40,674 nucleotides of DNA from a virus: IMG/VR virus record IMGVR_UViG_3300037246_001354, positions 1 through 40,674 of that record; one strand, 5' to 3'. The notes beneath the pieces were generated by a model. That model ran no database searches and was not told where the DNA came from. It worked only from the letters and a program-made list of their open reading frames with translations. The stretch's first letter is position 1; the number at the start of each line of letters is the position of its first letter. Below, piece after piece: positions 9,143 through 29,100 of this stretch. The position numbers and the translations under genes were made by a program.

Positions 9143-9637
9143 TTATATCTTAAATAGATCAGGATCAATGTGTTCAACTTCTTTTTTTACTGGACGGTTT
9201 TTTAAAAGTTTTTCTTGTATTTCACTTCTTGTCATATTATTCATATGTACATTTGCTAGTAACTTTTCCAAAACGCTTTCAAGAGCTTCTATTTTGTTTA
9301 TCGTTTCTTCCATTGATATCCACTTTCCATTTATTTTTACTTCTATATTATCTTTAAATCTTACCATTTCTTCTCCTTCAAAGGTTGCTCTACCCCATAT
9401 CGGAGCTGACCAACCTCCATTATCAGCAACTATGCTATGTTCGTGTTGATGATTTGTTAACACATGACTGTGTCCTGGTGTGTCCATTTCTACTAATTCT
9501 CCATTTGGTCCTACTGAAAACCACTTTTGTACTTCTGGTGATACTGAAGATGTTGTATACCATGTAGTTGCATTACTATTAGTACTGTCTGTGCTATATG
9601 TCGTATTAGTTCCGTTCGCCCATCCCATGTTTACCAT
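9143..9637 (-). CDS. diverged tail-collar-like paralog (164 aa)
   Basis: DTPGHSHVLTNHQHEHS, preceded by a G/S/T/N-rich segment, resembles the PSHSHTLNSHTHT block of the three collar paralogs at 11.7-13.4 kb. Coiled-coil C-terminus. Confidence 0.35.
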   Translation of the reverse strand: MVNMGWANGTNTTYSTDSTNSNATTWYTTSSVSPEVQKWFSVGPNGELVEMDTPGHSHVLTNHQHEHSIVADNGGWSAPIWGRATFEGEEMVRFKDNIEVKINGKWISMEETINKIEALESVLEKLLANVHMNNMTRSEIQEKLLKNRPVKKEVEHIDPDLFKI

Positions 9638-11340: not shown

Positions 11341-11703
11341 TTATTCTAACGCTTTTAAAATATTTATTTCTTCTGGCTCTTCCAAACAAAGTTTTTCTTC
11401 TAACATACTATTTCGTTTTTGCATTTCATCGAACAAATCACTAACTTTAACAAGTACTTTATCATACTTATTACGCTGTCCTTCATAATCTTGTTGGATT
11501 CCTATTGCTCTTTCTGAGTAATCCATCAATAGTAAAGTATTTCTTTTAGGTGCGCAATCGTTTACTACCTTCGGTGAGTTGCTACCTTTAACTGACCAAA
11601 TTGTTTGAATAAACAATGGACATACTACTCTACTATCCTTATCTACTGACCAAAATGGACATGTTTCTCCCATACAAGTTGGTTCTAATTCACGTTTTAT
11701 CAT
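11341..11703 (-). CDS. hypothetical Cys-containing protein (120 aa)
   Basis: ORF from the track; CMGETCPF...CP near the N-terminus. Confidence 0.4.
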   Translation of the reverse strand: MIKRELEPTCMGETCPFWSVDKDSRVVCPLFIQTIWSVKGSNSPKVVNDCAPKRNTLLLMDYSERAIGIQQDYEGQRNKYDKVLVKVSDLFDEMQKRNSMLEEKLCLEEPEEINILKALE

Positions 11704-11717
11704 TTTTTTATCTCCTT

Positions 11718-12275
11718 TTAAACTCTTTCACAAATTAATCCTACACGAGACTCTGGTCTATAAGTACTGACCGATCCATTAGTCGCTGTTGATCCTGGCG
11801 CTGCACCTACGAGTGTTCCAGATATTGAGTGCTGGTGAGTGTAAATAACAAGTTCGGAACCTTCACCGGGTGAACGACCACCATATATACTACCACTGTA
11901 GCCGGTAGTACTTCCAGAAAAGGTGTGAGTATGACTATTTAAAGTGTGTGAGTGTGATGGTGTGGCCCAATTTCCATCTACAGTACCACCTGTTACATAC
12001 GATCCACCTTTAACTGCAATTAGATCATCACTTCCAGAACTTATAGCCCAACCTGTTGGTGCTGAATTAGCGTAAATCCACATTTCTGTGCCTAAAGGTG
12101 TATCAGCATATTGACCAGCATATTTCCAATCCGTGTTGTCTGCTACCCATAAATCTTTTGTCGTTTCATCATAAACCAATCTGTATTCGTCGCTTGCTTG
12201 ATGAACCAGAGCACTAGCGTCTACTACAGTGTCTGATTTAAAATATCCATCCATTGTAATGTTATGAAAATCCAT
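11718..12275 (-). CDS. phage tail-collar (MdpB-like) domain protein, paralog 1 (185 aa)
   Basis: EMWIYANSAPTGWAI...DDLIAVKGGSYVTGGTVDGNWATPSHSHTLNSHTHT matches the tail-collar/MdpB pattern (I..W.....P.GW...DG ... G...GG..G....P.H.H). C-terminal YRPESRVGLIC. Confidence 0.55.
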   Translation of the reverse strand: MDFHNITMDGYFKSDTVVDASALVHQASDEYRLVYDETTKDLWVADNTDWKYAGQYADTPLGTEMWIYANSAPTGWAISSGSDDLIAVKGGSYVTGGTVDGNWATPSHSHTLNSHTHTFSGSTTGYSGSIYGGRSPGEGSELVIYTHQHSISGTLVGAAPGSTATNGSVSTYRPESRVGLICERV

Positions 12276-12288
12276 TATTTCTTCTCCT

Positions 12289-12846
12289 TTAATCTTTAGT
12301 ACAAATTATACCTACAGTAGATTCTGGTCTATATCCTGTTTCTGCACCATCGGATGCTGTACTCCCTGGTGATGGAGCTGTTGTACTTATATTAAATCCA
12401 TGTGTGTGATTTCGTACACCGATTGTTCCTTGGTCACCATCTTCATAGTTTGCGCCAGGTGAATTACTGCCTGTTGTACCGGATGCACTATGGACGTGAC
12501 TATTCATATTATGTGTGTGATTTGGCATTGTAAAACTACCAGCCGCTGTGCCACCTGTGATATAAGTACTACCACCTTTAACTGCGAGCATTTGATCGCT
12601 AGGCGTACCATTAATTGTCCATCCATCTGGTGCGCCGTTGGCATAAATCCACATTTCTGTAGTTGATGGTATATCACTATGAATACCCGGACTTTTCCAT
12701 TCCGTGTTGTCTGATATCCATATTAGCTCTGTGGATTCATCATATAACATTCGTCTTTCATCAGTAGAATCCCAAACCAAAGCACTCACATCTACTACAC
12801 TTTGAGCTTTATACTCTCCTTTCATTGTAATTCCATGAAACTTCAT
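12289..12846 (-). CDS. phage tail-collar (MdpB-like) domain protein, paralog 2 (185 aa)
   Basis: Same architecture, EMWIYANGAPDGWTI...MLAVKGGSTYITGGTAAGSFTMPNHTHNMNSHVHS, with C-terminal YRPESTVGIIC. Confidence 0.55.
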   Translation of the reverse strand: MKFHGITMKGEYKAQSVVDVSALVWDSTDERRMLYDESTELIWISDNTEWKSPGIHSDIPSTTEMWIYANGAPDGWTINGTPSDQMLAVKGGSTYITGGTAAGSFTMPNHTHNMNSHVHSASGTTGSNSPGANYEDGDQGTIGVRNHTHGFNISTTAPSPGSTASDGAETGYRPESTVGIICTKD

Positions 12847-12858
12847 TTTATTTTCTCC

Positions 12859-13434
12859 TTATCTTGTACATAGTATTCCTACACGGGCTCTTGGTCTATA
12901 TCCTGATGCAGAACCACCTATACCAGTTGAACCTGCCGCCGTGGTTGATGCTATACTAGCATTATGATTATGTACACCTGCTGTAACACCCGAATTATCA
13001 CCTTCTGAATTGCCCGCTGAGTTATTTACTGTACCGGACGTTACGTGAGTATGGCTATTCAAACCATGTGAGTGAGATGGTGTATTAAAATTTCCTTGAA
13101 TACTACCACCCGTAGTATAAGTACCACCGCCTTTGATCGCAACAAGTACATCACCCGGTGATGCATATAATGACCATCCATCCGGTGGAGAATCAGCATA
13201 AACCCACATTATTGTATTTTGTGGGATATTACTATATCCACCCATGGATTTCCATTCTGAGCTGTCAGCTATCCATATGTCTTTTGTTGTTTCATCATAT
13301 ACCATTCGACTTTCATCACTGGCTTGATGAAATAAAGCGCTAGCATCTACTACTGTGTGTGCCTTAAAATATCCTTGCATGTCAATGCCAGAAAACTTCA
13401 TTTTATCCTCCTTTTGAGTGCTCAACAAGAGCAT
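12859..13434 (-). CDS. phage tail-collar (MdpB-like) domain protein, paralog 3 (191 aa)
   Basis: IMWVYADSPPDGWSL...VLVAIKGGGTYTTGGSIQGNFNTPSHSHGLNSHTHV, with C-terminal YRPRARVGILC. Its start overlaps the 3' end of the rSAM gene by 32 nt. Confidence 0.55.
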   Translation of the reverse strand: MLLLSTQKEDKMKFSGIDMQGYFKAHTVVDASALFHQASDESRMVYDETTKDIWIADSSEWKSMGGYSNIPQNTIMWVYADSPPDGWSLYASPGDVLVAIKGGGTYTTGGSIQGNFNTPSHSHGLNSHTHVTSGTVNNSAGNSEGDNSGVTAGVHNHNASIASTTAAGSTGIGGSASGYRPRARVGILCTR

Positions 13435-14404
13435 TATAATAACAACCTACTCTACATACATCTAATGCATTACAATTTTTACACTCTTCTCTTAAATTTT
13501 TAATACATTCTGTTTTAAAAGTATGTGCTGGTGTAATATATTCATTTTGTAATTCTATCATTGTTTTTAAACTGCCATCCTCTTTTAAAACACTGCCTAA
13601 TTTTATTCTTGTTTGATTACAGTATTGAAAATCCCAATTCGCATTTATTAATCCGGTTTTAGGACAGGTACAACATGTTGTACCAAAATGAAAATTAGTT
13701 AAGTCAATCATATTTAACTCATTTATCATTTCTTGTGTATAGAAACAAATCGGAAAAGAATGGTCTGTTCCCCATTCTATACCTCTACTTTGTAATTCTG
13801 GTATAATTTGCTTAAGGGTATCTATATATATTTTTCTATACTCTTTGGTTACTTCTTCATCAAACACATCTACTTGTGTATCACATGATATTGTATATTT
13901 TATATCAGGATAATAAATCATGCAATCTAACATCTTCTGAAGTATTTCCTTGTATCCCCACATAGTTATTACAAAGTGTAAATTTAATTTTCTATTAAAT
14001 CCTCTCCACTTTTCATACGTTACAGGGTCAAATGCATAACCATTTATAGTATATGTGATTTTCTCTTTATAATGTTCTCTTACTATATCTGGATGGGTAG
14101 CAATTTTATTTAACGTTCTACCATTAGTGAATAAATCAACTAACAAATAGTGCTTAGTGGATTCCAAAAGAATTTCAATTATTCTTGGATGAAGTGTTGG
14201 CTCACCACCCATAATTAAACATCTCTTATCACTCAGATGAGCACTATTTGTTCTTATAAATTCAATATAAAGGTCTGCATCCATCACAGCCTGATCTCTT
14301 GCTTCCGCATTAAAACAATGAGGGCAATCTAAATTACAATTTTCTGTTACAACAAATCTATGGCATAACTCTCTCACAATTATTTCTCCCTTTAAGTCCA
14401 TCAA
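13403..14404 (-). CDS. radical SAM enzyme with C-terminal SPASM domain (333 aa)
   Basis: N-terminal CNLDCPHC is an exact CX3CX2C radical-SAM cluster motif, followed by a GGEPTLHP SAM-binding motif. C-terminal CKNCNALDVCRVGC is an exact SPASM CX2CX5CX3C motif, with additional upstream Cys residues (CCTCP...C) for an auxiliary cluster. Confidence 0.7.
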   Translation of the reverse strand: MMDLKGEIIVRELCHRFVVTENCNLDCPHCFNAEARDQAVMDADLYIEFIRTNSAHLSDKRCLIMGGEPTLHPRIIEILLESTKHYLLVDLFTNGRTLNKIATHPDIVREHYKEKITYTINGYAFDPVTYEKWRGFNRKLNLHFVITMWGYKEILQKMLDCMIYYPDIKYTISCDTQVDVFDEEVTKEYRKIYIDTLKQIIPELQSRGIEWGTDHSFPICFYTQEMINELNMIDLTNFHFGTTCCTCPKTGLINANWDFQYCNQTRIKLGSVLKEDGSLKTMIELQNEYITPAHTFKTECIKNLREECKNCNALDVCRVGCYYNALVEHSKGG

Positions 14405-14422: not shown

Positions 14423-14788
14423 CTAGACTATACCGGTATCTTTGGTGGACCCGTCAGATTGAAGTGATATTTTATTTTCTACTTCTCTTTTGGTCTTGGC
14501 AAGCTCGCTACTCATTTCTAAGAATTTCATTTTGAGCTTGTCCATTGACCGTTTCTTAATTCTAAATTTCTTTTCCAAGATAGAGCTTTTTACACTATCA
14601 CCAAGTATGAAATCAAATTTTGACTTCCTCTTCAGTAACTTATTTAGCTCATTTATCTGATTTACTACGTCACTTTCTAATTTAAATTCCTCTTGAATCT
14701 TACGTACGAGTTCTTTATTACCGGTATCCTTATCAACGATGCCGATATTGAGATTTCTAAAATCATCTATGTATTTTTTAAATTTCAT
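14423..14788 (-). CDS. hypothetical basic coiled-coil protein (121 aa)
   Basis: ORF from the track, Lys/Glu-rich. Its start abuts the stop of the upstream giant gene. Confidence 0.4.
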   Translation of the reverse strand: MKFKKYIDDFRNLNIGIVDKDTGNKELVRKIQEEFKLESDVVNQINELNKLLKRKSKFDFILGDSVKSSILEKKFRIKKRSMDKLKMKFLEMSSELAKTKREVENKISLQSDGSTKDTGIV

Positions 14789-17700
14789 TATGGACTACTC
14801 GTACTAATGCTTAATGACTCGCTTTCAGAGCTAGATGATTGACTGCTTGAGCTAATACTTGAACTGCTGCTAGAACTAGAAACACTTGACGAGCTAGAAC
14901 TGCTAAGGCTTGATGAAGAGCTAGAACTGCTAGAACTTAGAGAACTCGAACTCGAAGAAACACTGCTCGAAGAGCTAGAACTACTACCCGGACAGATAAA
15001 GCCACCACTAACCAATAAGAAGTTATCAAATGCCGCTGAAACAATTGGAGTTCCTGTATAATTTTGTACATATAATGATACATCTACTTCTTCAAAAGTC
15101 TGTACAGTATAAGGACCACCAATCGCAACCCAAGTTGATCCATTCCAATAGTATGACTGCCAATCATCACCAACTCTGGTGATTCTGAATCCACCACTAG
15201 TTATAGGCGCTGAAACATTTGTACTGTCAATCACAACACCACCAGATACCATTTCTTCTGTGATTGTGGTTGTATGCGCTCTCTTATAAACTCTTGTTCC
15301 CCTACTTCCAGCTGTAAATTGTAGTACTTCAAATCCTACATTCCAACCACTACCACTAACTATTGATAATTCTCTCCAATCAGTTTGAACATCAAAATTT
15401 TCATTTGTAGGTATTAACCATCTTGTTGTTGCTTTAGATAGATTTGTTGTATCGTCTACATGTATTATAAGTTCTTCGCCGCTTACTATCATATTACCTA
15501 CTGTGGTCCATCTTTGTACATCTGGTACTGTTCCATCAGGTTGATCGAAGTCATCATTCGGTGTGATGAAACAAGAGAAACTACTGCTTGATGTCGAACT
15601 ACTACTAAATGATTCAGAACTAGAACTAGAACTTAATGAACTAGAACTGGAATCAGAACTGGATGAAATACTGCTCGATGAAATACTGCTCGATGAAATA
15701 CTACTCAATGAGCTAGAGCTAAGACTCGAGCTGCTCGACGAGCTTGATCTGGAGCTGGAACTAGAACTTACAGAACTGGAGCTTGAAGAAACGCTACTTG
15801 AACTAGAAGAAATAGAGCTTATACTTGATGAACTCGATGATCTACTTGAACTGGAAAAACTTTCACTGCTTGAAGATATTGAACTTGAACTCGCGCTTGA
15901 ACTGGAGAGAATAAATCTATCTTCAAGTTCTTTAATTAGTTCGTAATAATCTGCTGGAGTCAATCCACAATTTTCAAATTGTGATCCTTTATATCTTCTT
16001 CTTATTCTTGCTTTTTTCCATGGTGTAGATGAGCTAGATAAGCTTGAAGAACTAGAACTTAATGAGCTAGAACTGGAACTAGAACTTAATGAGCTAGAAC
16101 TGGAACTGGAACTTAATGAGCTAGAACTGGAACTGGAACTGGAACTTAATGAGCTAGAACTGGAACTGGAACTTAATGAATTAGAAGAACTCGATGAACA
16201 ATCATCTATAAGATAACTTCCTAAAGTTCCTGTAGCAAATTTACCAACATAAACATATTTTCCATCGCCCCAAACTGAAAGCAATCCGGCATCTACTTCT
16301 GTGTTTGTATCAAGAAGTGTTAAATTACCAGAACCATCTACTACATGACTCTTGAAGCCTTGAGTAAGATCGGCACAATAAATAAAAGTTCCATCTCCCC
16401 AAACTTTTTGAGGTTGCCCACCTGCTAATACAGTAACATATGATAAATTACCAGATTCATCAACAGAGTAAGTTTGCATTCCTTCATTTTGATTAGCAAC
16501 ATAAATAAAGTTTCCATCACCCCAAACACCCTGGTAGTTACTACCACCACCTTGCTTTTGGGTAGAAATATGATTTAAATTACCTGCACCATCAACAGAA
16601 TAACTTAAAATACCAATACCAGTCGAAGCAACATAAATAAAATTTCCATCACCCCAAACATCTTTATAAATACTGCCTTGGTCATCTACATCTTTAAATG
16701 TTAAGAAACCAGCACCATCAACAGAGTAACTTCTAAGACCTTGATTATCACAAGCACAATAAATAAAAGTTCCATCACCCCAAACACCCTGGTAGTTATC
16801 ACCTTGATCTATTAAATGTATTGGAGTTAGGATACCATTTTCATCAACAGAATAACTTCTAAGTCCAAGGTGGCTATTAGCAACATAAATAAAGTTTCCA
16901 TCCCCCCAAACACCATTATAAGAATTGCCTTGATCGTCTGTATCTACATGCGTTAAAACACCTGAACCATGATCGACTGAAAAACTTCTAAGACCCTCAA
17001 GTTCACCCGCAACATAGATATAATTTCCATCACCCCAAATATCAGCATATGAATCACTACCTACGGTAATATCATCCATAAGTGCTATATCACCTGAACC
17101 AGTACAGGTTGACGACGAACTACTGGAACGAGATGAACTTGATACTGATGATGAACTAATAGATGAACTAGATAAACTGGATGAACTAATAGAGCTAGAA
17201 CTAGAACTCGAACTTAATGAACTAGAACTTAGCGAACTCGAACTTAATGAGCTAGAACTGGAAATAGAACTAGAACTGCTTGAAGATGAATTGAAATTAA
17301 TTTCAAAATTCTGAGTATAGCCTGTAGCACTATCGGCGGGAGAAGCACCGGAATCTCTGGAAACTAATACATAAAGATATTGTTTTGCTCCAGTTTCACA
17401 GGTAATTGATAGTGCATCTATTAATGATCCCGAGGTTCTAGCGGAATCGGAGTGAATATCTAGTGTTGCTATAGTTCCATTCCTTTTGAAAGAGCAATAT
17501 AATAAATCAGATGATGTTCCACCATCATTATAAGCTTCTGTATTATCTGTGTTCTGGTCGCTTATTCTAAAATCTAAACTGTTACTATTTCCATAGGCAT
17601 AAACTACTATTCCATCATTTCCGCTGAATTGATCGTTAAATGTTCCAATTATGTTAGAAACAGAACACAAAATTGTTTGAGAAATAGTACCAGTAACAGC

Positions 17701-17877
17701 AGTAATTTGCATTTCAAAATCAATGTCAAAATCACTAAAATGACCTACACCAAAATCATAATATGCATAAGAGACATCATCCCTGCGCATTGCAGTGAAT
17801 GTAGCCGCAGAAGAGTCTAAAGTAAAAACACCAGCGCTGCCAACTGCTGTATATGTAGTTAAATTTTCAATTGCCAT
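14788..17877 (-). CDS. giant fiber/adhesin-like protein: poly-Ser linkers + LVIVD-like beta-propeller + jelly-roll-like module (1029 aa)
   Basis: Eight ~45-aa repeats of form y.GVWGDGnFIYVA...GLRSYSVD.sGnLT. Four long SSSSLSSSS linkers. Central module CFITPNDDFDQPDGTVPDVQRW...FDNFLL is shared with two paralogs. Confidence 0.55.
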   Translation of the reverse strand: MAIENLTTYTAVGSAGVFTLDSSAATFTAMRRDDVSYAYYDFGVGHFSDFDIDFEMQITAVTGTISQTILCSVSNIIGTFNDQFSGNDGIVVYAYGNSNSLDFRISDQNTDNTEAYNDGGTSSDLLYCSFKRNGTIATLDIHSDSARTSGSLIDALSITCETGAKQYLYVLVSRDSGASPADSATGYTQNFEINFNSSSSSSSSISSSSSLSSSSLSSSSLSSSSSSSSISSSSLSSSSISSSSVSSSSRSSSSSSTCTGSGDIALMDDITVGSDSYADIWGDGNYIYVAGELEGLRSFSVDHGSGVLTHVDTDDQGNSYNGVWGDGNFIYVANSHLGLRSYSVDENGILTPIHLIDQGDNYQGVWGDGTFIYCACDNQGLRSYSVDGAGFLTFKDVDDQGSIYKDVWGDGNFIYVASTGIGILSYSVDGAGNLNHISTQKQGGGSNYQGVWGDGNFIYVANQNEGMQTYSVDESGNLSYVTVLAGGQPQKVWGDGTFIYCADLTQGFKSHVVDGSGNLTLLDTNTEVDAGLLSVWGDGKYVYVGKFATGTLGSYLIDDCSSSSSNSLSSSSSSSSLSSSSSSSSSSLSSSSSSSSLSSSSSSSSLSSSSSSLSSSSTPWKKARIRRRYKGSQFENCGLTPADYYELIKELEDRFILSSSSASSSSISSSSESFSSSSRSSSSSSISSISSSSSSVSSSSSSVSSSSSSRSSSSSSSSLSSSSLSSISSSSISSSSISSSSDSSSSSLSSSSSSESFSSSSTSSSSFSCFITPNDDFDQPDGTVPDVQRWTTVGNMIVSGEELIIHVDDTTNLSKATTRWLIPTNENFDVQTDWRELSIVSGSGWNVGFEVLQFTAGSRGTRVYKRAHTTTITEEMVSGGVVIDSTNVSAPITSGGFRITRVGDDWQSYYWNGSTWVAIGGPYTVQTFEEVDVSLYVQNYTGTPIVSAAFDNFLLVSGGFICPGSSSSSSSSVSSSSSSLSSSSSSSSSSLSSSSSSSVSSSSSSSSISSSSQSSSSESESLSISTSSP
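16053..16186. repeat. tandem 27-33-nt serine-codon repeat (about 5 copies) inside the 1029-aa gene
   Basis: The unit acttaatgagctagaactggaact(ggaact) recurs head-to-tail and encodes SSSSLSSSS. The period is always a multiple of 3. Confidence 0.7.
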
Positions 17878-17882
17878 ATAAT

Positions 17883-17892
17883 CTATTTATCC
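17883..17892 (-). promoter_or_regulatory. late-promoter-like GATAAATAG junction motif
   Basis: Minus strand reads GGATAAATAGATTAT-ATG, a 7/8 match to the T4 late consensus TATAAATA. The same motif recurs at four other gene junctions. Confidence 0.3.
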
Positions 17893-17893
17893 T

Positions 17894-20800
17894 TTATGGT
17901 GCTGTACTGCTAGAAGAAGTACTACTTGAACTAAAACTTCCAGCACATATAATTCCATCTGCTGAATTTACAACAAAATCATTCAAACTAATTGTTGATG
18001 TTGTTGCGTCGCCTGCTTTTAGATGTATTTGAATTTTTACATCCCCTGTGTAATCAGAAAGTAGAGCACCAGTTGTACTAGCCTGAGCACATATACTACC
18101 CCATCTTGATTGTGGTCCATACCAGGTCCATCCTCTTATTTCGTCACCAATTCTTGTAAATCTAAGACCTGGGTCACGTGGGTTCGCATCGTAACCTTGA
18201 TTACAAAATCCAGCTGTAGTACCTCTACCACCAACTCGATTTGCACCACCAGTTTGTTTATAGTTACGTATCATGGCTACCTCTAATGCTCCTAATCCTC
18301 CACTAGCTGGAACTACCTGCATTTGTGGAAACCAGTTTTCTGTTGTAGGATTAACGCCATGGAAATAACCAAGATGACCAATATGAATATCAAAGTCACC
18401 AACAAATCCATTTCTTGACTCTATAACGAAAAGTCTATCACCAACAGTAGATGCACTAGGATTGAAGTATAATGTATTATTCTTTATATATGCTCCATCT
18501 GGATCATCTGCCTGTAGTATACTCCACTTTTGAAGGTCTACTGAGTCACCATCACTGCCATCGAATGAATCATCAGGTACGATTTCACAAGAAACGCTAC
18601 TTGAACTTGTAGATGAACTAGAACTAGAACTTAATGAACTAGAACTAGAACTTAATGAACTAGAACTCACAGAACTACTTGAACTACTTGATGAACTTGA
18701 ATATGTTTCTCCAAATATACATTGTGCATTACTATTAAAATCACCTATGTATAGATACCTTACAGTTGTTCCTTCTCCTGATTTATCACCATTTGTATGT
18801 ACTATCTCTAATCCAACTTCACTAGGAAATCCTGTTATAGTTGGTGCTGAAAAGTAATCCCCGCCTCCTTTATTAAAATGGAATGTATCACCACTTCTTT
18901 GTAAGCGAAGGTTATAATCTCCATTCATAGCAGGATCATCAATCTGGATTCTTCCAGTTGGCACACCTGCGCTAGGCGTGTAATCATAATATGGTTGTGT
19001 TCCATTGAGGCCAGAATGGTATAATGCGGCTCCAAACTCAAAATACCAATCAGCGCCACTCGTAGGTAAGTCGAAAATTCTTAGATACTGTCTATGTCCA
19101 TCTACATCATGCCCAGAACCATCTGTATTTGAATAAGCAACCGTATAGTGTAAACTAAAGTTTCCATCAAAGCTACCTGTGAAAACAAATCTGGTTTTTC
19201 TATCCGTGATTGATAAATCTTGGTCATTTACAACTGATTCCATTACATAATCACCACTAATAAAACCATATTTTAACCACTCATCAACATTATTAGATAG
19301 TGGATGAGTAGTGTTCCATAATTGGCCACCTGGTTGTGAGTCGTTAGTATATGGAGTAGTAGGAGGCGGTGCGGCAGAAGCACAATCATTTCCACAACCA
19401 TCAAAACCACCACCATAGTTTTCAGATACACCCTTTTCTAAAAATGGTTCTTGTAATTGGAATCCAGCGGATGGTGTTAATACACAACTAAATGAACTAG
19501 AAATTGATATTGAACTTGATGAAAAACTTGAACTTGATGATGAGCTTGAAAGTCCACAGAATGAAACTAATACCCAAATTTGAAAAAGGTATCCATTTCT
19601 TAAAGCGCCCGAAGTATTACCGAATGCAAAGTCAATATCCAGATTTCTAAGATCATCCCATATCCAATTTTTATATCCCGGCCCCGCAGCATCATTAGTT
19701 ATATCAAAGGTATATATAGTTCCTCCTGCTCCTATAGTAGCAGGAAGTTGATCTGTTCCATAATCAGTTCCAGGAGTAACACCATCAAATCTTGGTGTAA
19801 AATTTCTTAATTTTGGATTCACTTTCGTATTTTCAGAAGCTATTTTAACTCTTATTTTAACTCCAAATATATCACCATATTCAGCCCCTGAAGGTATAGT
19901 ATTACCAGTAAATCTTAACAAATCACTTTGTGCACTACCCCATACATCAAATCTTGCATATGTATTTGGATCACCATCTGTGGAGTTAGGTAAATCAACC
20001 CAACTACCAGATTGTCCACCCAAATTTGAAACTGTATTATAGTCATAAGCGCCTTCTGGTATGCCAAGCGGACAAGATGAACTACTGCTTAAGGAAGACG
20101 ATGAAGAAGACGATGAAGAAGAAGTCGATGAACTGGAACTACTACTAGAAAATGTTTCTCCAATTATACAACCTGCATTACTCAAAGTATCCGCAAAATA
20201 ATCCATTCTAACTTCTGATCTTTGGTCAGTCCTAATACCATTTGTGTGTATTATTTCAATTCCAACCTCACTTGGAAAATCTGCTATTGTTACGTCTAAA
20301 GCTTTGGAATCACTGTTTCTATAAAATTGAAATGTTTGTCCTGATCTAAGTATTTTAGCTCTATGTCCAGCACTCTGTTGCCAGAAGGTGTCACCGGTAT
20401 ATTTAGTTCTTCCATTACTCACACCAGCACTTGGTGTATAGTCAGCGTAAGGTGATGATCCACCAATTCCAGTCTGCCATATGAGAACACCACATTCTAC
20501 GTACCAATCAGCGCCACCTGTTGGTAAATCGAAAAATCTAAAGAAGTACCTATGACCATCTACATCCACACCGCTATCTGTTGAGGCACTCCAAGGTGTT
20601 GCAAAGTTAATGCTGAAATCTCCATCAATTTTCCCTGTGAATTTATATTCGGTTTGTCTTTCTGATCCGGACACTTCCAAGTTATTTACTATTGATCTCA
20701 TTGATAAATATGGTTTATTGCTATTATCAGGATCAGCTCCCCAACTGTAGTAACTTAAAGAATTATCGCTATTATTAGGTTTTGGTGTAATTACTTCGAA

Positions 20801-22762
20801 TAATTGTCCACCAGGTTGAGCACCTAATGTATATGGAGTAGTTGGTGGCGGCGCTGCTGATGCAGGAGTAACTGGATATGGTAAATTTCCAATGTAGTCT
20901 CTTGATTCACCAGCTTCTAAGAATGGCTCAAGTATTTGGAATCCTCCGGCTGATACTAATACACAACTAAATGAACTAGAACTAAATGAGCTAGAACTAG
21001 AACTTAGAGAACTCGAACTTATAGAACTACTGCTCGAGCTAGAACTTGAACTTAGAGAACTACTGCTCGAGCTAGAACTTTCAGAACTAGAACTTACAGA
21101 ACTAGAACTTGAACTAGAACTTTCAGAACTAGAACTTGAAGAACTGGAAAGAGAACTTGAAGAACTCGAAGAAGAAGAACTCCATAAGCTTCCTTGACCA
21201 GCTATTACTAATAATGAGTCATTTGGTGGTGAACTTGATGCTGCCCAAACTCTCATTGTTTTTGAATCTATAAAATTTATCTCTATTGGGTAGTATATTT
21301 CTTTTGTTTCAGTATCCCATAATGTTGCTGCGTACGTATGTTGAACACCCATATAATGTACTATATCTGCATAGTATATACTACCACTTGGTACCCACAC
21401 TGCTTCATATTGTATATCTGATTCTGTTCCATCCTCCACTATCCTTATTTGTTTAAATATTAATTTATTATCTGTTGAATAAGGAAAAGCACCATCAGCT
21501 ACATATGACAATAAATCACAGATGTTTTTATTACTTATGACTTTATTATATCCAGCTGGTGGATCAGTTGTCGTTTTCCAAGAATAATCAAATTCACCCC
21601 AAGTTACTTTCATCAATCCATGAGTACCCACGGTACAAATTGTTTCACTTACTGAACTACTGCTTGAACTTACAGAGCTGCTACTACTGCTTGAACTTAC
21701 AGAGCTGCTTGAACTTGAAGAACTACTGCTCAAACTACTAGATGAACTAGATGAACTAGACGATACAGAACTAGAACTACTACTTGAACTGACACTTGAG
21801 CTACTTGATGATACTGAACTTGAGCTACTTGAAGAATATGAACTTGAAGAGGGTTCTACTTCATAACTAAACAAAATTCCATTAGGGATACCTACATAAA
21901 CGAAGTTTCCATCACCCCAAATTCCTCTGGAACCTGGAGCACTATCAAGTAGTATTAAACCACCAGTAGGATTTACAGAGTAGCTTGTAAAATTGCCTGT
22001 CGAATAAACAAGCTGTCCATCACCCCAAACTTTCCACGCATCTCCTGCTTCTAAGTTTCTACTTACATATGTTAAATTACCAGAAGGATCAACTGTGTAA
22101 GTTAAAACCCCCCTGGCATTACTAGAAACATACAAAAAGTTTCCATCCCCCCAAACATCAGTATATGAATTGGCAGGAACCTGAACTTCATAGTGTTTAT
22201 CTACAAATGTTAAATTACCAGAACCATCAACTGTGTAAGTTAAAAGTCCACCATTGGCTTGACCAGTAGTTATATAAATAAAATTTCCATCACCCCAAAC
22301 ATTTCTATATACAGTTGATCCTCCAATCCAATGAACATCTTTATATGTTAAGAAACCACCACCGTCAACAGAGTAGCTTTTAATTCCTTGCCATTGACTA
22401 GCAACATAAATAAAATTTCCATCACCCCAAACACTTACATAACCATTACCTCCAACTATTCCCCCTTGTAGGTGTTCATCTATAAATGTTAAATTACCAG
22501 AAGGATCAACGGAATAAGTTCTAAGACCACCAAATTCACAAGCAGCATAGATGAAAGTTCCATCTCCCCAAACGCCTGCATAAGCATGACCCTGGTCATC
22601 TGAATGTATAAATGTTAAATCACCAGAAGGATTTACAGAGTAAGTTCTAAGACCAGCAGCATCACAAGCAGCATAGATAAAGTTTTCATCTGTCCAAATA
22701 GCCATTGGTGTACCAGTACCCTTGTCATTTGTATCTTTAAGTGTTATATCACCTGCTGCCAT
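17894..22762 (-). CDS. giant fiber/adhesin-like protein with internal ~400-aa tandem domain duplication (1622 aa)
   Basis: N-terminal propeller repeats (VWGDGNFIYV...), then five poly-Ser linkers and two paralogous ~400-aa domains (SSFSCVL...AAPPPTTPYT...DVDGHRYFFRFFDLPTGGADWY...FPSEVGIEIIHTNG). C-terminal module CEIVPDDSFDGSDGDSVDLQKW. Confidence 0.55.
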   Translation of the reverse strand: MAAGDITLKDTNDKGTGTPMAIWTDENFIYAACDAAGLRTYSVNPSGDLTFIHSDDQGHAYAGVWGDGTFIYAACEFGGLRTYSVDPSGNLTFIDEHLQGGIVGGNGYVSVWGDGNFIYVASQWQGIKSYSVDGGGFLTYKDVHWIGGSTVYRNVWGDGNFIYITTGQANGGLLTYTVDGSGNLTFVDKHYEVQVPANSYTDVWGDGNFLYVSSNARGVLTYTVDPSGNLTYVSRNLEAGDAWKVWGDGQLVYSTGNFTSYSVNPTGGLILLDSAPGSRGIWGDGNFVYVGIPNGILFSYEVEPSSSSYSSSSSSSVSSSSSSVSSSSSSSSVSSSSSSSSSSLSSSSSSSSSSVSSSSSSSSVSSSSSSVSETICTVGTHGLMKVTWGEFDYSWKTTTDPPAGYNKVISNKNICDLLSYVADGAFPYSTDNKLIFKQIRIVEDGTESDIQYEAVWVPSGSIYYADIVHYMGVQHTYAATLWDTETKEIYYPIEINFIDSKTMRVWAASSSPPNDSLLVIAGQGSLWSSSSSSSSSSLSSSSSSSSESSSSSSSSVSSSSESSSSSSSSLSSSSSSSSSSISSSSLSSSSSSFSSSSFSCVLVSAGGFQILEPFLEAGESRDYIGNLPYPVTPASAAPPPTTPYTLGAQPGGQLFEVITPKPNNSDNSLSYYSWGADPDNSNKPYLSMRSIVNNLEVSGSERQTEYKFTGKIDGDFSINFATPWSASTDSGVDVDGHRYFFRFFDLPTGGADWYVECGVLIWQTGIGGSSPYADYTPSAGVSNGRTKYTGDTFWQQSAGHRAKILRSGQTFQFYRNSDSKALDVTIADFPSEVGIEIIHTNGIRTDQRSEVRMDYFADTLSNAGCIIGETFSSSSSSSSTSSSSSSSSSSLSSSSSCPLGIPEGAYDYNTVSNLGGQSGSWVDLPNSTDGDPNTYARFDVWGSAQSDLLRFTGNTIPSGAEYGDIFGVKIRVKIASENTKVNPKLRNFTPRFDGVTPGTDYGTDQLPATIGAGGTIYTFDITNDAAGPGYKNWIWDDLRNLDIDFAFGNTSGALRNGYLFQIWVLVSFCGLSSSSSSSSFSSSSISISSSFSCVLTPSAGFQLQEPFLEKGVSENYGGGFDGCGNDCASAAPPPTTPYTNDSQPGGQLWNTTHPLSNNVDEWLKYGFISGDYVMESVVNDQDLSITDRKTRFVFTGSFDGNFSLHYTVAYSNTDGSGHDVDGHRQYLRIFDLPTSGADWYFEFGAALYHSGLNGTQPYYDYTPSAGVPTGRIQIDDPAMNGDYNLRLQRSGDTFHFNKGGGDYFSAPTITGFPSEVGLEIVHTNGDKSGEGTTVRYLYIGDFNSNAQCIFGETYSSSSSSSSSSVSSSSLSSSSSSLSSSSSSSTSSSSVSCEIVPDDSFDGSDGDSVDLQKWSILQADDPDGAYIKNNTLYFNPSASTVGDRLFVIESRNGFVGDFDIHIGHLGYFHGVNPTTENWFPQMQVVPASGGLGALEVAMIRNYKQTGGANRVGGRGTTAGFCNQGYDANPRDPGLRFTRIGDEIRGWTWYGPQSRWGSICAQASTTGALLSDYTGDVKIQIHLKAGDATTSTISLNDFVVNSADGIICAGSFSSSSTSSSSTAP

Positions 22763-22803
22763 TTAAAATGTCCTTATTGTTAAATTATTCCATGTCATTT
22801 AAT

Positions 22804-22813
22804 CTATTTATCC
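22804..22813 (-). promoter_or_regulatory. late-promoter-like GATAAATAG junction motif
   Basis: GGGATAAATAGATTAAATG..., followed by an 11-codon mini-ORF ending IRTF* whose TAA overlaps the ATG of the downstream giant gene (TTTTAAATGG). Confidence 0.3.
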
Positions 22814-22814
22814 C

Positions 22815-25166
22815 TTATACTGCATATGATACCCTAAGTTCTGCACATAATGTTGTTGATAAATCATAAGCTTTAGCATCTCTATGTGTATTATTACTTG
22901 AGGCATCATTAATAATATGTACTGTCAAAGCCTGTCCAGTATTCCATCCAGCCCTTGCAAAATGTGTTTCTAATATTGAACTAAAATCATCTGAATCATA
23001 AGTATTACCATCAGACCAAATCTGTTCCCCATCCCAAGGTATTGAAGCCCCTAAAGGTCTACCAAGAAGATCGCCACTTCCAGTGGGTGCTGTTGGATTA
23101 TCAGCATCCTCAATTCGAATGTTTGTTCTGAAGGTATTATTTGGTCCTGACAAATTCGAAACAAAACGCAAAATCGCAGATGAAATGACAGTATCTTTTG
23201 GAATTGTAACTGATGAAAAACGAAACCATCCACGATTAGAGGCACCTTGTCTGTTTCCCATATTCACAGATACATTTGAATTAATCCACCCAGACCCATT
23301 TACATTGGACTGACCATCATCAGCGCCTGTTGCTATCCTAACAGCAAATGCAGCTAGCGAAGTAGAGGAACTTGAACTGCTTTCTGATGATGAACTTGAG
23401 CTTGAGCTTACTGAACTAGAACTTGAACTTAGTGATGATGAGCTACTACTTGATATTGAACTGGAACTTACAGAACTTGAGCTACTTGACGACGATGTGC
23501 TAGAACTAGAACTGGAACTTAGAGAACTTGAGCTTTCTAAGTCACCTTCTAATTGTTTCGATATATGACACTCAATTTGATAAGCAAGAGAATTACTAAT
23601 TGCTTTATTTTTATCATTTACATCGGCGTCACCAGTTGGATCATCTATTTGACTCCAATCTTGTGGATCAAATGGTGTATCATATATTGGGTGAAAATCA
23701 CCCCAAGTCATTATTCTATCTGCTGACTTAACACCACCATCATCGTCCCACTCTAATTTAATTCTATCATCCCACTCATAACCAAGTGGATCTACATTAT
23801 TCCACATTTCATCTTTTAAGTAGAACTCAAATATTCCACCATCAAAAGCTGAAGTAGCGGTTGAAGTAGTAACCGGGTTAGATATTTGCAAACCAACTTT
23901 ATCATATAATTCTGCTAAAACAACCGTATCAGTTTTATCAACATGTACAAAAACTGTTACTTCTTCTCCGACCCTTGGTACGCCTTGTCTATCTCTTAAT
24001 GAATACCAGAAATGCTTGAGTGTTGGTAATGCCAAACTAGTACTACTTGAACTTGAACTAAGGCTTGAGCTACTTGAACTTGAACTAAGGCTTGAGCTAC
24101 TTGATGAAGAGCTAGAACTAAGGCTTGAGCTACTTGAACTAAGGCTTGAGCTACTTAAACTGCTACTTGAACTACTTGAACTTAAAGAACTCGAACTTGA
24201 GCTAGAGCTAAGAGAACTTGAAGATGAACTTAAAGAACTCGAACTAATACTTGAACTTGAGCTACTGCTTGATTTTTCTGCTTCATATGACCAAAAATTC
24301 GTATCAGCACCACAATAAATAAAATTACTATCTGCCCAAATACCTCCATAATCACCACCTTCATCCTCTATATCTATAAATGTTAAATTACCCGAACCAT
24401 CTACACGATGGCTTCTTACGCCATCAATAGTATTGGCAGTATAGATAAAGTCTCCATCACCATAAACATCATCATAATCACCACCCTGATAATTCGTATC
24501 ATTTAGCGTAAAGCCTACACCATTATTACTAAAACTCCTTAAACCATCAGTACCACAAGCAACATAAATGTAGTTTCCATCACCCCAAACCCGTCTAAAT
24601 CCCTCTCCTGCAGCGGTAAAATACGATCCTATAAAAGTCAATTCACCTATGCCATTAACAGTATACTTAAGTATACCACCAGGAGTACCAGAAACAGCAA
24701 CATAAAGATATATTCCATCACCCCAAATACCCGAATAAAAACCACCCTGATCGTCATCATCAACTTCTGTTAATACGCCATTTCCGTCTACTGTGTGACT
24801 TCTAATACCAAAGCTCATAGCAGCAGTATAAACAAAATTTCCATCAGCCCAAACGTCCTGGTGAAAAGTAAAAACATGAGTACTTTTATATGTTAAAATA
24901 CCAGCACCATCTGCTTGATAGGTCAGCAATCCATCAGTCCCAGAAAGTGTTACATAAATAAAAGTTCCATCCCAAAAAACAAATTCATATCGTTTGCCTT
25001 GGTCATCTTGATCTACAAATGATAAATTCCCCGAGCCATCAACAGAGAAACTTTTTAATCCGTTAAAACTATCAGCAACATAAATGTAGTTTCCATCACC
25101 AAAACTTCCCCTATATCCAGGAGTACCACCGCCACCACCGATAAATGTTAAATCACCATATCCCAT
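22815..25166 (-). CDS. giant fiber/adhesin-like protein, propeller + Ser linkers + C-terminal globular domain (783 aa)
   Basis: N-terminal propeller repeats (FGDGNYIYVADSFNGLKSFSVDGSGNLSF...), two long poly-Ser linkers, and a C-terminal ~180-aa domain. Confidence 0.55.
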   Translation of the reverse strand: MGYGDLTFIGGGGGTPGYRGSFGDGNYIYVADSFNGLKSFSVDGSGNLSFVDQDDQGKRYEFVFWDGTFIYVTLSGTDGLLTYQADGAGILTYKSTHVFTFHQDVWADGNFVYTAAMSFGIRSHTVDGNGVLTEVDDDDQGGFYSGIWGDGIYLYVAVSGTPGGILKYTVNGIGELTFIGSYFTAAGEGFRRVWGDGNYIYVACGTDGLRSFSNNGVGFTLNDTNYQGGDYDDVYGDGDFIYTANTIDGVRSHRVDGSGNLTFIDIEDEGGDYGGIWADSNFIYCGADTNFWSYEAEKSSSSSSSSISSSSLSSSSSSLSSSSSSSSLSSSSSSSSLSSSSLSSSSSSLSSSSSSSSSSLSSSSSSSSLSSSSSSTSLALPTLKHFWYSLRDRQGVPRVGEEVTVFVHVDKTDTVVLAELYDKVGLQISNPVTTSTATSAFDGGIFEFYLKDEMWNNVDPLGYEWDDRIKLEWDDDGGVKSADRIMTWGDFHPIYDTPFDPQDWSQIDDPTGDADVNDKNKAISNSLAYQIECHISKQLEGDLESSSSLSSSSSSSTSSSSSSSSVSSSSISSSSSSSLSSSSSSVSSSSSSSSESSSSSSTSLAAFAVRIATGADDGQSNVNGSGWINSNVSVNMGNRQGASNRGWFRFSSVTIPKDTVISSAILRFVSNLSGPNNTFRTNIRIEDADNPTAPTGSGDLLGRPLGASIPWDGEQIWSDGNTYDSDDFSSILETHFARAGWNTGQALTVHIINDASSNNTHRDAKAYDLSTTLCAELRVSYAV

Positions 25167-26178: not shown

Positions 26179-29100
26179 CTACGTGCAATCGTTTACTTCA
26201 AAACTTCCAAGTTTTCCTGATATATTATGGGCGCAACCAAACACATATTTTCCATCGCCATAAACACCACGCAAAGCAGTATCAAAAGTAGTATCAGTAT
26301 CAAGAAGTGTCGGAAAACCAGAACCATTTACTATAATACTATTTAGACCACCTTCTGTTGTATAAACAAAAGTTCCGTCACCCCAAACTTCATCACCACC
26401 CACGTCAGCTAATGAAGTGATATACGTTAAATTACCAGCGCCATCAACAGAGTAAGTCATCAGTCCTTCATTTACATTAGAAATATAAAGGAAGTTTCCA
26501 TCACCCCAAACACCACGATAAGGACTACTACCACCACCTTGTTTATCAGTATCAATCCATGTCAAATTGCCACTACCGTCAACAGAGTAACTTACAACAC
26601 CGCCAGCACGAGCAGCACAATAAATGAAATTTCCGTCACCCCAAACATCATAATATTGCCCAACTCCTATAAAGTGTTGATCTTTAAATGTGAAAGCGCC
26701 AGCACCATCAACAGAATAACTACGAATTCCGTCAAAATAATTAGCAGCATAAACAAAAGTTCCATCTCCCCAAACACCATAATATGTATCACCATCATCT
26801 ATCGAATCTACATAAGTTAATATACCAGCACCATCAACAGAGTAAGACAATAGTCCAGTAGAACCAGAAGCAACATAAATGTAATTTCCGTCACCCCAAA
26901 CTCCTTCATATTGCCCCTTACCAGACTCAAAATGAACATCTACATGAGTTAACACACCTGACACTTCATCAACAGTATAAGTTCTAAGACCGGCAGCAAG
27001 AGCCGTAACGTAGATATAAGTTCCATCAAACCAAACATCAGAGTAAGTTCCGCCGCCTCGAGTGTCAGAGTCTTTAAGTACTATCTCCCCCTGACCTTCA
27101 CAAGATGAACTTGATGATGTACTTGAACTTGAACAAGACATTATTCCTGCATTTAAAGTAAAATTATCGAAAAACCATGTATTAAATTGAAAATTAGGTA
27201 ATAGAGGAAGTACTATTTTAAAAACAATATCTCCTGACCCAAAATCACTCATAGTCGATCTTAAAACAAAACCAGAACCATCTCCTTGGTCAACCCAAAC
27301 CTCAAGTGTATTACCTGTACGAACAAATCTTACTATACCACTAATATAATCCGCATTACTGTCTCTATATGTTTCTAAAACAGAACCATTATATTCTGTA
27401 ATATATATACTATGAACTTGAGAAGTATATCCCCTGTTCAATCGTACCCAATAGTTATTCGATTGATTCTTAACTTCAATATAAAAATTAAGGGGTTGTT
27501 TTACATCAGAAGAACCATGAGCATAATCTATTTCAAGGGATACATCATCTTGGAATTTAGCGTTATTGGTTAATGTTGCCGAACTTGTAAATGGGTCACT
27601 AAACATTCTTAATGTATCACTATCTATTTGACATATACCTGAACCTGTTACTACTCTTGTCCATCTATCAGAATCAGGAAAACTTCCGTTTGGACCTGTA
27701 AAATCATCATTTGGATCAAAATTACATTGTAACACTTGTACTGTATTTGAACTACTTGAACTGACACTTGAACTAGACCAAGATGATGAACTGGCACTTG
27801 AACTAGACCAAGATGATGACGAACTTGAACTAGACCAAGATGATGACGAACTTGACTCAGTTACAAATAATGCCTGCGTCCTGTAATGAAATACGGTCTG
27901 TACTTCAATAGGTTTGTGTAATTCAGAACACCTTGAATAGTACATTAAATCATCATTAACATTAAATAAACCAACTTCTCTTATTGTTAGCTCTTCTCCA
28001 ATCGGAACAATGAAGTCAATATAGTAATTTTCAGTATCTTGCCATACTCTCCAATAGTCTCCACTTGCTGTAACTGATTCAACATCATTAAACGAATATG
28101 GATTATATTCAACAGTTGTGCCATTACCAACCTTCCAGTATCCTAATCCATCTGGACATATTCCAAGTTTAGTTATATCACAATCATTACTTGTTCTTGC
28201 AACTACGACTGGCTCAAACCAAATAAAATAAGCCTCACCTGATTGAGCCGTTCCAAATTCTACAACAGCAGTGCTTCTATTTGGAAGAGTTACACTTATA
28301 GGATTTATATAATTACCATTTGAGTCATAGGTTTGAATAATCATACCATCAGTACCAGTATCATGGTTAATGGTCCAGGTGGTTGAGGCTACTGCTTGAG
28401 TATAATTATAATCAGCAGTTCTAACAAGTGCCTCACCAGTCTGATTTGTTGACCATATAGCTTCTGTTCTATCACCATCTACTATTGATGCGGAAAGAGG
28501 CCATGATTTAGACGGAGAAGTCCAGAAATTGGCAAGGGTTCTAGCTGGAACAGGATACCCACTTGGTGCTGCAGTTTCTAAACCATGAATTATTGTCCAG
28601 GTACTATTTGGTGCTACTTGATCGTACTCAAATGACATTTCAGGTTTATAGTATCCAGCTATGCAAGCAATACCAGATATTGCTTCATCGAAAGTTAACC
28701 TAACAATGTTATCTGTTAATATTTCTATATTGCTTGGTACTACTCTCTCCATTGGTAAGAAAGATACTTCTGTGGTTGGTTTCCACGCTTGGACCATTAT
28801 ATTTGTTCCAAATTCATGTGTTATCGTCCATGTTGTTGATGCATTATATTGAGTATAAACAATTGCAAATTGACCAGCATTAGGTGTTGGTTTAGCAGCA
28901 GATAAGAATTGAGAACCAGTAAATGTAGTATTAAAGTATCCAAGTGATGTTAAAGGGTATAAGGATTCTGTTTCACCGGTTCTACTCTGAATAGAAGCAG
29001 GTGATATAAGCTCTTGATATTGTACGTATTTACCGACAGGTCTTACATACTCCCAGTTTCTTATAAACTCATCTATATAAAACTTATTTAAAATCCAATC

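Follow-up and report, generated by a model that had tools for sequence, protein, structure and literature searches.

A conserved gene triplet encoding candidate minimal tail fibres, probably distant relatives of T4 gp12, in an uncultured T4-like phage

The DNA analysed here, which we call the window, comprises positions 1 to 40,674 of IMG/VR record IMGVR_UViG_3300037246_001354 (40,674 nucleotides, nt), from an uncultured T4-like phage, and our subject is a set of three paralogous open reading frames (ORFs) that lie head to tail on its minus strand, at 11718-12275, 12289-12846 and 12859-13434, separated by gaps of 12-13 nt. They are referred to below, in order of transcription, as paralogs A, B and C. 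They are 47-55% identical in pairs over their full length and each matches the profile of the family at about 1e-95, so that their paralogy is far above chance and the tandem triplication proposed in a first-pass annotation of this stretch is borne out. Paralogs B (12289..12846) and C (11718..12275) have the 185 amino acids (aa) given there, whereas the 191 aa given for the upstream copy do not stand. That length comes from the mechanical ORF, which extends to 13434, and we rejected it because its start lies inside the preceding radical S-adenosylmethionine (SAM) gene and has no ribosome-binding site. Paralog A most likely starts at the ATG at 13401 and has 180 aa (12859..13401), since this ATG follows the ribosome-binding site AAAGGAGG, the orthologues open with the same MKFSGIDM start, and the longer reading would run into the upstream gene; paralog A as read from 13401 is identical to a database protein of 180 aa. 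Upstream of the ATG of each gene stand AAGGAG or AAAGGAGG and an A-rich spacer, and these sites, which had been described as near-identical cassettes, are only similar.

Each paralog is built of two domains, an anchor-like N-terminal domain and a C-terminal tip domain, encoded on the minus strand at nt 13234-13401 and 12862-13233 in paralog A, at 12679-12846 and 12292-12678 in paralog B and at 12108-12275 and 11721-12107 in paralog C. This architecture is left out of the first-pass annotation, as is the radical SAM/SPASM gene next to the triplet. The motifs that it did list, a collar pattern, GG..TGG and a histidine block, are present in three of three paralogs. What they have in common is MW[IV]YA..P.GW at aa 65-76, KGG..TGG, the block P.H.H....H.H at aa 106/108-117/119, and a C-terminal YRP....G..C. 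The first of these, a collar-like N-terminal strand motif, reads MWIYANSAPTGW in paralog C (12048..12083, minus strand), with equivalents at 12619-12654 in B and 13174-13209 in A. The double HxH block reads PSHSHGLNSHTH in paralog A (aa 108-119; 13045..13080), PNHTHNMNSHVH in paralog B (aa 108-119; 12490..12525) and PSHSHTLNSHTH in paralog C (aa 106-117; 11925..11960), in each case on the minus strand. The C-terminal strand motif is YRPESRVGLIC in paralog C (11730..11762, minus strand) and has its equivalents at 12301-12333 in B and 12868-12900 in A.

Residue conservation at these motifs was computed over 197 instances of the tip domain. H115 and H117 are kept in 98% and 96% of instances, H108 and H110 in 91% and 75%, and a third, weaker HxH pair in 48% and 46%; P73, G75 and W76 of the first-strand motif are 96-98% conserved, and in the C-terminal motif R173 and P174 reach 97%, G179 92% and C182 77%. 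The Gly/Ser/Thr-rich segment at aa 121-166 behaves very differently: here the paralogs are 24% identical to one another and the members of one orthologue group 37%, compared with 50-57% and 61-71% outside it, and large insertions occur within it in other members of the family. The claim that divergence is concentrated in the Gly/Ser/Thr-rich part of the C-terminal half thus holds.

The family to which the three proteins belong is large. A word-indexed search returned 74 close relatives, all of them metagenomic and none of the 74 with a Pfam domain, and an exhaustive HMMER search with the family profile returned 4377 cluster representatives (clusters at 50% identity) at E<=1e-3, 959 of them at E<=1e-10. 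The two domains recur as separate modules among these proteins. The C-terminal module (profile positions ~57-186, ~130 aa) stands at the very C-terminus of proteins that range from 130 to 862 aa, and many of these show fibre-like repeats (P0086, P0122 and P0191), and it is found in tail and baseplate gene blocks, both of which are expected of a fibre tip. The N-terminal module (positions 1-56) forms the extreme N-terminus of longer proteins, in which it lies 100-200 aa before the tip (for example P0083, P0086, P0097, P0115, P0140 and P0181). Because both modules recur separated in longer proteins, we read paralogs A, B and C as shaft-less fibres in which the anchor is joined directly to the tip. 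At the other extreme, two single polypeptides, P0075 and P0154, carry three complete tandem tip domains, with linkers of 2-3 residues in P0075, and three further proteins (P0107, P0114 and P0206) have three tandem but partial tip-domain matches per chain. Judged from their sequences, these three-tip chains may be single-chain pseudo-trimers or stacked knobs; a single-sequence AlphaFold2 (AF2) model of P0075 had a predicted local distance difference test score (pLDDT) of 30 and was unusable.

The first-pass annotation called the paralogs collar-domain proteins, a label that overstates the case. The Pfam Collar family, PF07484, was unmatched in the window proteins and the first 61 members of the family (E<=1) as well as in the other 57 (E<=0.01). 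Of the gp12 collar the family retains only an opening stretch of ~20 residues (iPxGxxmwxYaxxaPxGW), and in hhalign alignments ~30 residues of the collar core, CxG..(LF..IG..YGG)..F.[LV]PD[LM]RG.FVRG, are without counterpart; opposite the core stands only a short 'D.LLAVKGG', in which 'AVKG' is aligned to 'FVRG'. The related idea that these are virion fibre or pin proteins with a gp12-like, HxH-bearing C-terminal domain fares better and is probable, on the strength of the position of the module at fibre C-termini and of a colinear match to gp12. To obtain this match, a tip-domain profile of 197 sequences and 134 positions was aligned by hhalign with a profile of the gp12 C-terminus built from 46 IMG/VR homologues that are 26-97% identical to T4. 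The alignment has a probability of 70.9%, an E-value of 3.8e-5 and a score of 36.7, and it runs over 123 columns, positions 2-133 of the 134. Three anchors fall in the same order in both profiles: iPsGTkmwFYqdsAPtGW is aligned with gp12 PVGAIMMWAADSLPSDAW, the HxH block with the gp12 YHKH that contains His445 and His447, and tyRPxAxVGIICtK with gp12 ETRPWNISLNYIIK. The first and last of these agree with two strands that a collar domain should have, the first collar strand [IV]PxGxIxxφ....PxxW and the C-terminal strand ETRPxN..L.YIIK, which returns to the collar; the family version of the latter is YRPxxxVGxIC.[KR]. The two gp12 histidines, which bind Zn on the threefold axis (PMC3004832), lie opposite the first HxH pair in the main run and opposite the second pair in a shallower one. 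The controls scored far lower, at 15.1 for the reversed profile, at most 12.3 for 25 column shuffles and at most 23.8 for 25 ten-column block shuffles, which preserve the motifs and break their order. Reciprocal hidden Markov model searches of the family against gp12 in small sets gave E-values of 1e-5 to 1e-6, and the first-strand segment that matches gp12 in these searches has little composition bias. Alignment of the family profile by hhalign with the single T4 gp12 and gp10 sequences was not significant.

The only Pfam family touched by any of the 118 scanned members is the gp10 C-terminal family, Gp10_C (PF21939). Five of the 118 match it, with a best E-value of 2.5e-6 and with none of the window proteins among them. 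Where a score was given, the match falls short of the curated cut-off of 27 bits: residues 82-138 of P0067 match profile positions 49-105 with 20.2 bits (E 1.2e-3) and P0073 reaches 14.2 bits. Taken on these sequence comparisons, remote homology of the tip domain to the gp12/gp10 C-terminal fold appears likely.

The genomic position of the triplet points in the same direction. Along the direction of transcription come, in the window, the genes for a tail protein, gp5 (hub), gp6 (wedge), a beta-propeller protein of 1353 aa and three more giant proteins, and after these the genes for a 121-aa protein, the radical SAM/SPASM enzyme, paralogs A, B and C, a 120-aa protein in which four cysteines are conserved (Cys4), gp55, gp47 and gp46. 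The triplet thus closes the baseplate/fibre block, behind gp5, gp6 and the four giant proteins. In T4 this place is taken by gp10-gp11-gp12. The neighbours on its other side, gp55, gp47 and gp46, are non-structural, which leaves room for a reading in which the paralogs are soluble His-rich proteins, metal-binding or host-modulating, encoded just after the structural block and not components of the virion; that virion incorporation is itself something we infer also speaks in its favour. We nevertheless consider this highly improbable, because the same C-terminal module ends long fibre-like proteins and lies within podovirus tail modules, and because the similarity of the tip to gp12 is colinear. 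In the podovirus-like tail modules, which hold distant homologues, the gene that follows the SU10-type adaptor bears the tip domain at three of four loci (L006-L008).

The order 121-aa protein, radical SAM enzyme, three paralogs, 120-aa protein, gp55 and gp47 is conserved in related contigs, and so is the identity of each copy. Orthologues at the same position are 56-75% identical (56-72% at position 1, that of paralog A, in L001 and L003; 60-72% at position 2, B; 58-75% at position 3, C), as against 41-53% between positions, and the 60 near-full-length members split 18/18/24 among the three copies, with the gene order kept across contigs. Since the copies form position-specific orthologue groups, the triplication is old and maintained. 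The divergence of the C-terminal half had been taken to fit receptor-binding diversification, and stable orthologue groups of this kind fit three fixed, non-redundant roles better than free diversification of host range. Outside the clade the number of copies varies. There is one copy in L009, L011 and L022, two in L006, L020, L028, L031 and L043, and three in L049; in L009 and L011 the single copy follows the giant proteins and the homologue of the 120-aa protein still comes directly after it. Tandems of two or three copies are found in unrelated phages.

These numbers bear on whether the three paralogs act as one hetero-assembly, either an A-B-C heterotrimer or an interacting triad like that of T4, in which three sequential genes, transcribed into one mRNA, encode gp10, gp11 and gp12, proteins of one primordial fold that lie at the baseplate periphery (PMC3004832). 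On such a reading the triplet would be a younger, still recognisable replay of the proposed gp10/gp11/gp12 triplication, and besides the T4 precedent it can draw on the fact that the copies number exactly three, keep their order and are orthologous position by position across contigs, on the retention of every anchor residue and both HxH pairs in all three, and on P0075 and P0154, whose exactly three complete tips could make each of them a single-chain pseudo-trimer. The variation in copy number among relatives, from one to three, tells against it, for a single copy is functional and the existence of single-copy relatives means that homotrimers are viable; tips that follow one another in a single chain might just as well be stacked along a fibre that is a homotrimer. 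In our judgement a hetero-assembly is unlikely.

The reading that we prefer, with moderate confidence, is that each of the three genes specifies a minimal tail fibre or baseplate pin of its own and that the phage is a deeply divergent T4-like myovirus. Several results weigh against it. Paralogs A, B and C have no match in Pfam, PHROGs or NCBIfam, a profile search of PDB sequences returned nothing at E<=10, and tblastn with paralog C, P0086 and P0075 gave no match among the genomes of 50,697 cultured phages, nor did megablast with 11 kb of window DNA against cultured phages, so that the family is without an experimental anchor in cultured phages. The hhalign probability of 71% falls below the usual bar of 90-95%, and a composition rich in His, Gly, Ser and Thr inflates profile scores. 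The place of the paralogs in the virion, as noted above, belongs to the interpretation and not to the observations. Finally, the AF2 monomer model of paralog C is weak where it matters most: residues 10-80 have a pLDDT of 83-95 and the C-terminal half one of 50-74, with a strand at residues 180-184. A low score for the tip is expected if the tip folds only as an oligomer. Fold searches gave no significant match; the weak matches were to tail proteins, and the top match in BFVD was a Phage Tail Collar protein, at E 0.015.

If the three proteins are indeed minimal fibres, a mechanism can be proposed from known chemistry of the T4 fibres. The N-terminal domain of ~56 aa would serve as an anchor or trimerisation domain, fused without a shaft to a tip of ~130 aa that would be a remote, trimmed relative of the C-terminal domain of gp12 and gp10. 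Each paralog would form a trimer by means of both domains, and its N-terminal domain would dock the protein onto the baseplate periphery or onto a larger fibre. Within the tip, the collar-like first strand (MWxYA..P.GW) is predicted to pair with the last strand (YRP..VG.IC), and H115/H117 and H108/H110 of the three chains could meet on the threefold axis to make one octahedral metal site or two stacked ones. The predicted metal is Zn or Fe, bound in the manner of gp12 His445/His447 and of gp37-Fe. The hypervariable Gly/Ser/Thr-rich segment, aa 121-166, would then be the exposed surface that contacts the host.

A different source of stability for the tip is suggested by the gene immediately upstream, which encodes a 333-aa radical SAM/SPASM enzyme (13403..14404, minus strand; PF04055 at 1.2e-12) and stops 1 nt before the start of paralog A. 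The enzyme has the CxxxCxxC core (CNLDCPHC), its C-terminal CKNCNALDVCRVGC is a CxxCx5Cx3C SPASM motif, and its closest solved relatives are PqqE and SuiB residues 136-448. It might modify the three paralogs, so that a covalent cross-link would act instead of, or beside, metal stabilisation; such a link could for example be a thioether from the conserved C-terminal cysteine or a C-C bond that involves His or aromatic residues, and it might be made in late infection, possibly within an A-B-C heterotrimer. The gene abuts paralog A in every contig of the clade (1 nt here, a 4-nt overlap in L003 and L004), and in L020 it sits between two fibre copies, where positions 3173-6552 encode, in order, a 114-aa protein, a fibre, the radical SAM enzyme, a 112-aa Cys-rich protein, a second fibre, a 115-aa protein and gp55. 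The nearest solved relatives of the enzyme are peptide-modifying, and a maturase gene followed by paralogs that are conserved in their N-terminal half, vary in the C-terminal one and keep a cysteine near the end superficially resembles the clusters of ribosomally synthesised and post-translationally modified peptides (RiPPs).

The association does not extend far beyond this clade, however. Among about 25 distinct types of family locus, a radical SAM gene lies within 8-10 kb only in the window clade and in L020. The homologues of the enzyme make up about 100 clusters, all from uncultured phages (tblastn with the protein against cultured phages found no match), and elsewhere those with 38-44% identity lie among nucleotide-metabolism and early genes, with no fibre gene and no constant neighbour; a constant small neighbour that might be an alternative substrate was looked for across the radical SAM family and none was found. 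Cys182 is 77% conserved across the family, and it is also kept at loci that lack a radical SAM gene. Alignment of the enzyme with SuiB begins only at residue 136, so that its 333 aa leave no room for the N-terminal region of SuiB and no RiPP recognition element (RRE), the leader-binding domain, is evident. RRE-independent SPASM enzymes exist. Our literature search yielded no link between radical SAM/SPASM enzymes and phage fibres. Compared with RiPP clusters that contain SPASM enzymes, such as those of SuiB, PqqE, sactipeptides and ranthipeptides, the locus is alike in having a SPASM gene directly upstream of paralogs with a conserved cysteine, but the paralogs, unlike RiPP precursors, are two-domain proteins of 180-185 aa whose domains recur in large fibre proteins, and both the lack of an evident RRE and the failure of co-occurrence outside one clade set it apart. 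We regard modification of the paralogs by this enzyme as improbable. Were it true, they would be the first radical-SAM-matured receptor-binding protein of a virion, and the abutting SPASM gene offers a cheap, testable lead on post-translational maturation of a virion protein.

The membership of the triplet does not extend to the 164-aa protein at 9143-9637 (minus strand), which had been put forward as a fourth, diverged copy and which we reject as a paralog. The similarity is confined to 20-43 aa around TPGHSHVLTNHQHEHS, with an hhalign probability of 14%; pairwise BLASTP against the paralogs gives an E-value of 2e-6 over the His-rich stretch only, and both terminal anchors, MWxYA..P.GW and YRP..VG.IC, are absent. 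Besides its His cluster the protein has a coiled coil in the middle and, at the C-terminus, an invariant IDPDLFK[IV], and in related contigs its gene lies between gp47 and a PhageMetallopep gene. In the orthologues the His cluster is kept only in part, and the coiled coil and the C-terminal IDPDLFK are conserved. In Pfam, PHROGs and NCBIfam it has only a weak PHROG amidase match, at E 0.025.

Two small genes flank the block that contains the triplet. At its head is that of the 121-aa protein (14423..14788, minus strand), which is Lys-rich and coiled-coil-like and occupies the same place in L001, L003 and L020. Downstream of paralog C is that of the 120-aa Cys4 protein (11341..11703, minus strand), with the pattern TC..x.C...VxCP...DCAPKRNT and an acidic tail. 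We considered this protein as a fibre chaperone and found the idea unlikely: across contigs in which the fibres reach 50-75% identity its own identity is 88%, and it stays with gp55, always lying between the fibre gene or genes and gp55, single-copy relatives included. It is probably not part of the fibre and may belong to a late-transcription module. The T4 late promoter TATAAATA is not enriched in the window (5 found, 6.9 expected) and does not occur upstream of the triplet, and a scan for sigma-70 promoters and terminators was uninformative. Of these five matches two, both on the minus strand (37955 and 38331), are near a strand switch at ~38000-39100, where the guanine-cytosine skew changes sign and ORFs at 38459-39102 are on the plus strand.

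Other proteins of the window deserve mention. The three giant proteins upstream of the small genes (14788-25166, minus strand; 1029, 1622 and 783 aa) have no Pfam or PHROG match and are presumably long fibres or baseplate extensions; that of 1029 aa has very long poly-Ser tracts and GVWGDGNFIYVA-type repeats that resemble beta-propeller blades. The 1353-aa protein encoded after gp6 (26179-30240, minus strand) contains a lactonase-type 7-bladed beta-propeller segment (PF10282, E 7.5e-10) and phrog_21918 repeats, and may stand in the position of gp7. Between the gp47 and gp46 genes lies that of a vault-like protein of 843 aa (5013-7544, minus strand), in which a Vault_3 repeat accompanies the shoulder domain of the Major Vault Protein (PF11978, E 1.3e-26); it has an 846-aa counterpart in L002.

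What the analysis defines is a large and unannotated family of fibre-tip domains, of about 4,400 clusters at 50% identity, whose members are at present called hypothetical by annotation pipelines. The tie to the gp12/gp10 fold, with its controls, should help both to predict receptor-binding proteins of uncultured phages and to count candidate metal-binding HxH sites in environmental phage particles. Most likely the family adds a new branch to a known kind of protein and is a distant relation of the short tail fibre of T4.

Comparison with the T4 system brings out likenesses and differences. With gp12 the family has in common the colinear first strand, HxH block and last strand, and a gene position at the end of the baseplate block; unlike gp12, it has neither the ~30-residue collar core nor a beta-helical shaft, and its tip is of only ~130 aa, with two to three HxH pairs instead of one and a conserved cysteine in the last strand. 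The repeated HxH pairs in a Gly/Ser/Thr-rich tip also recall the gp37 needle of T4 and the HxH iron sites of marine phage fibres (the 'Ferrojan horse' idea), a likeness noted in HxH chemistry, from the literature. According to PMC11705849, which cites Bartual 2010, the HxH pairs of gp37 bind Fe, and octahedral coordination of the metal by three chains is the chemistry to be expected; gp37, however, has seven HxH sites along an extended needle, against two closely set pairs and a weaker third in the family. With gp10-gp11-gp12 the triplet shares the arrangement of three sequential genes of one fold that end a baseplate operon (PMC3004832). The T4 proteins are without detectable mutual identity and differ greatly in size, in contrast to the paralogs, which are ~50% identical and of equal length; this conserved triplet, standing where a T4-like baseplate operon ends, is a natural comparison for the triplication proposed for gp10/gp11/gp12. 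The description that suits the three proteins best is not that of a new mechanism but that of a new, trimmed form of the gp12/gp10-type fibre-tip fold, of which the baseplate operon carries three copies at its end.

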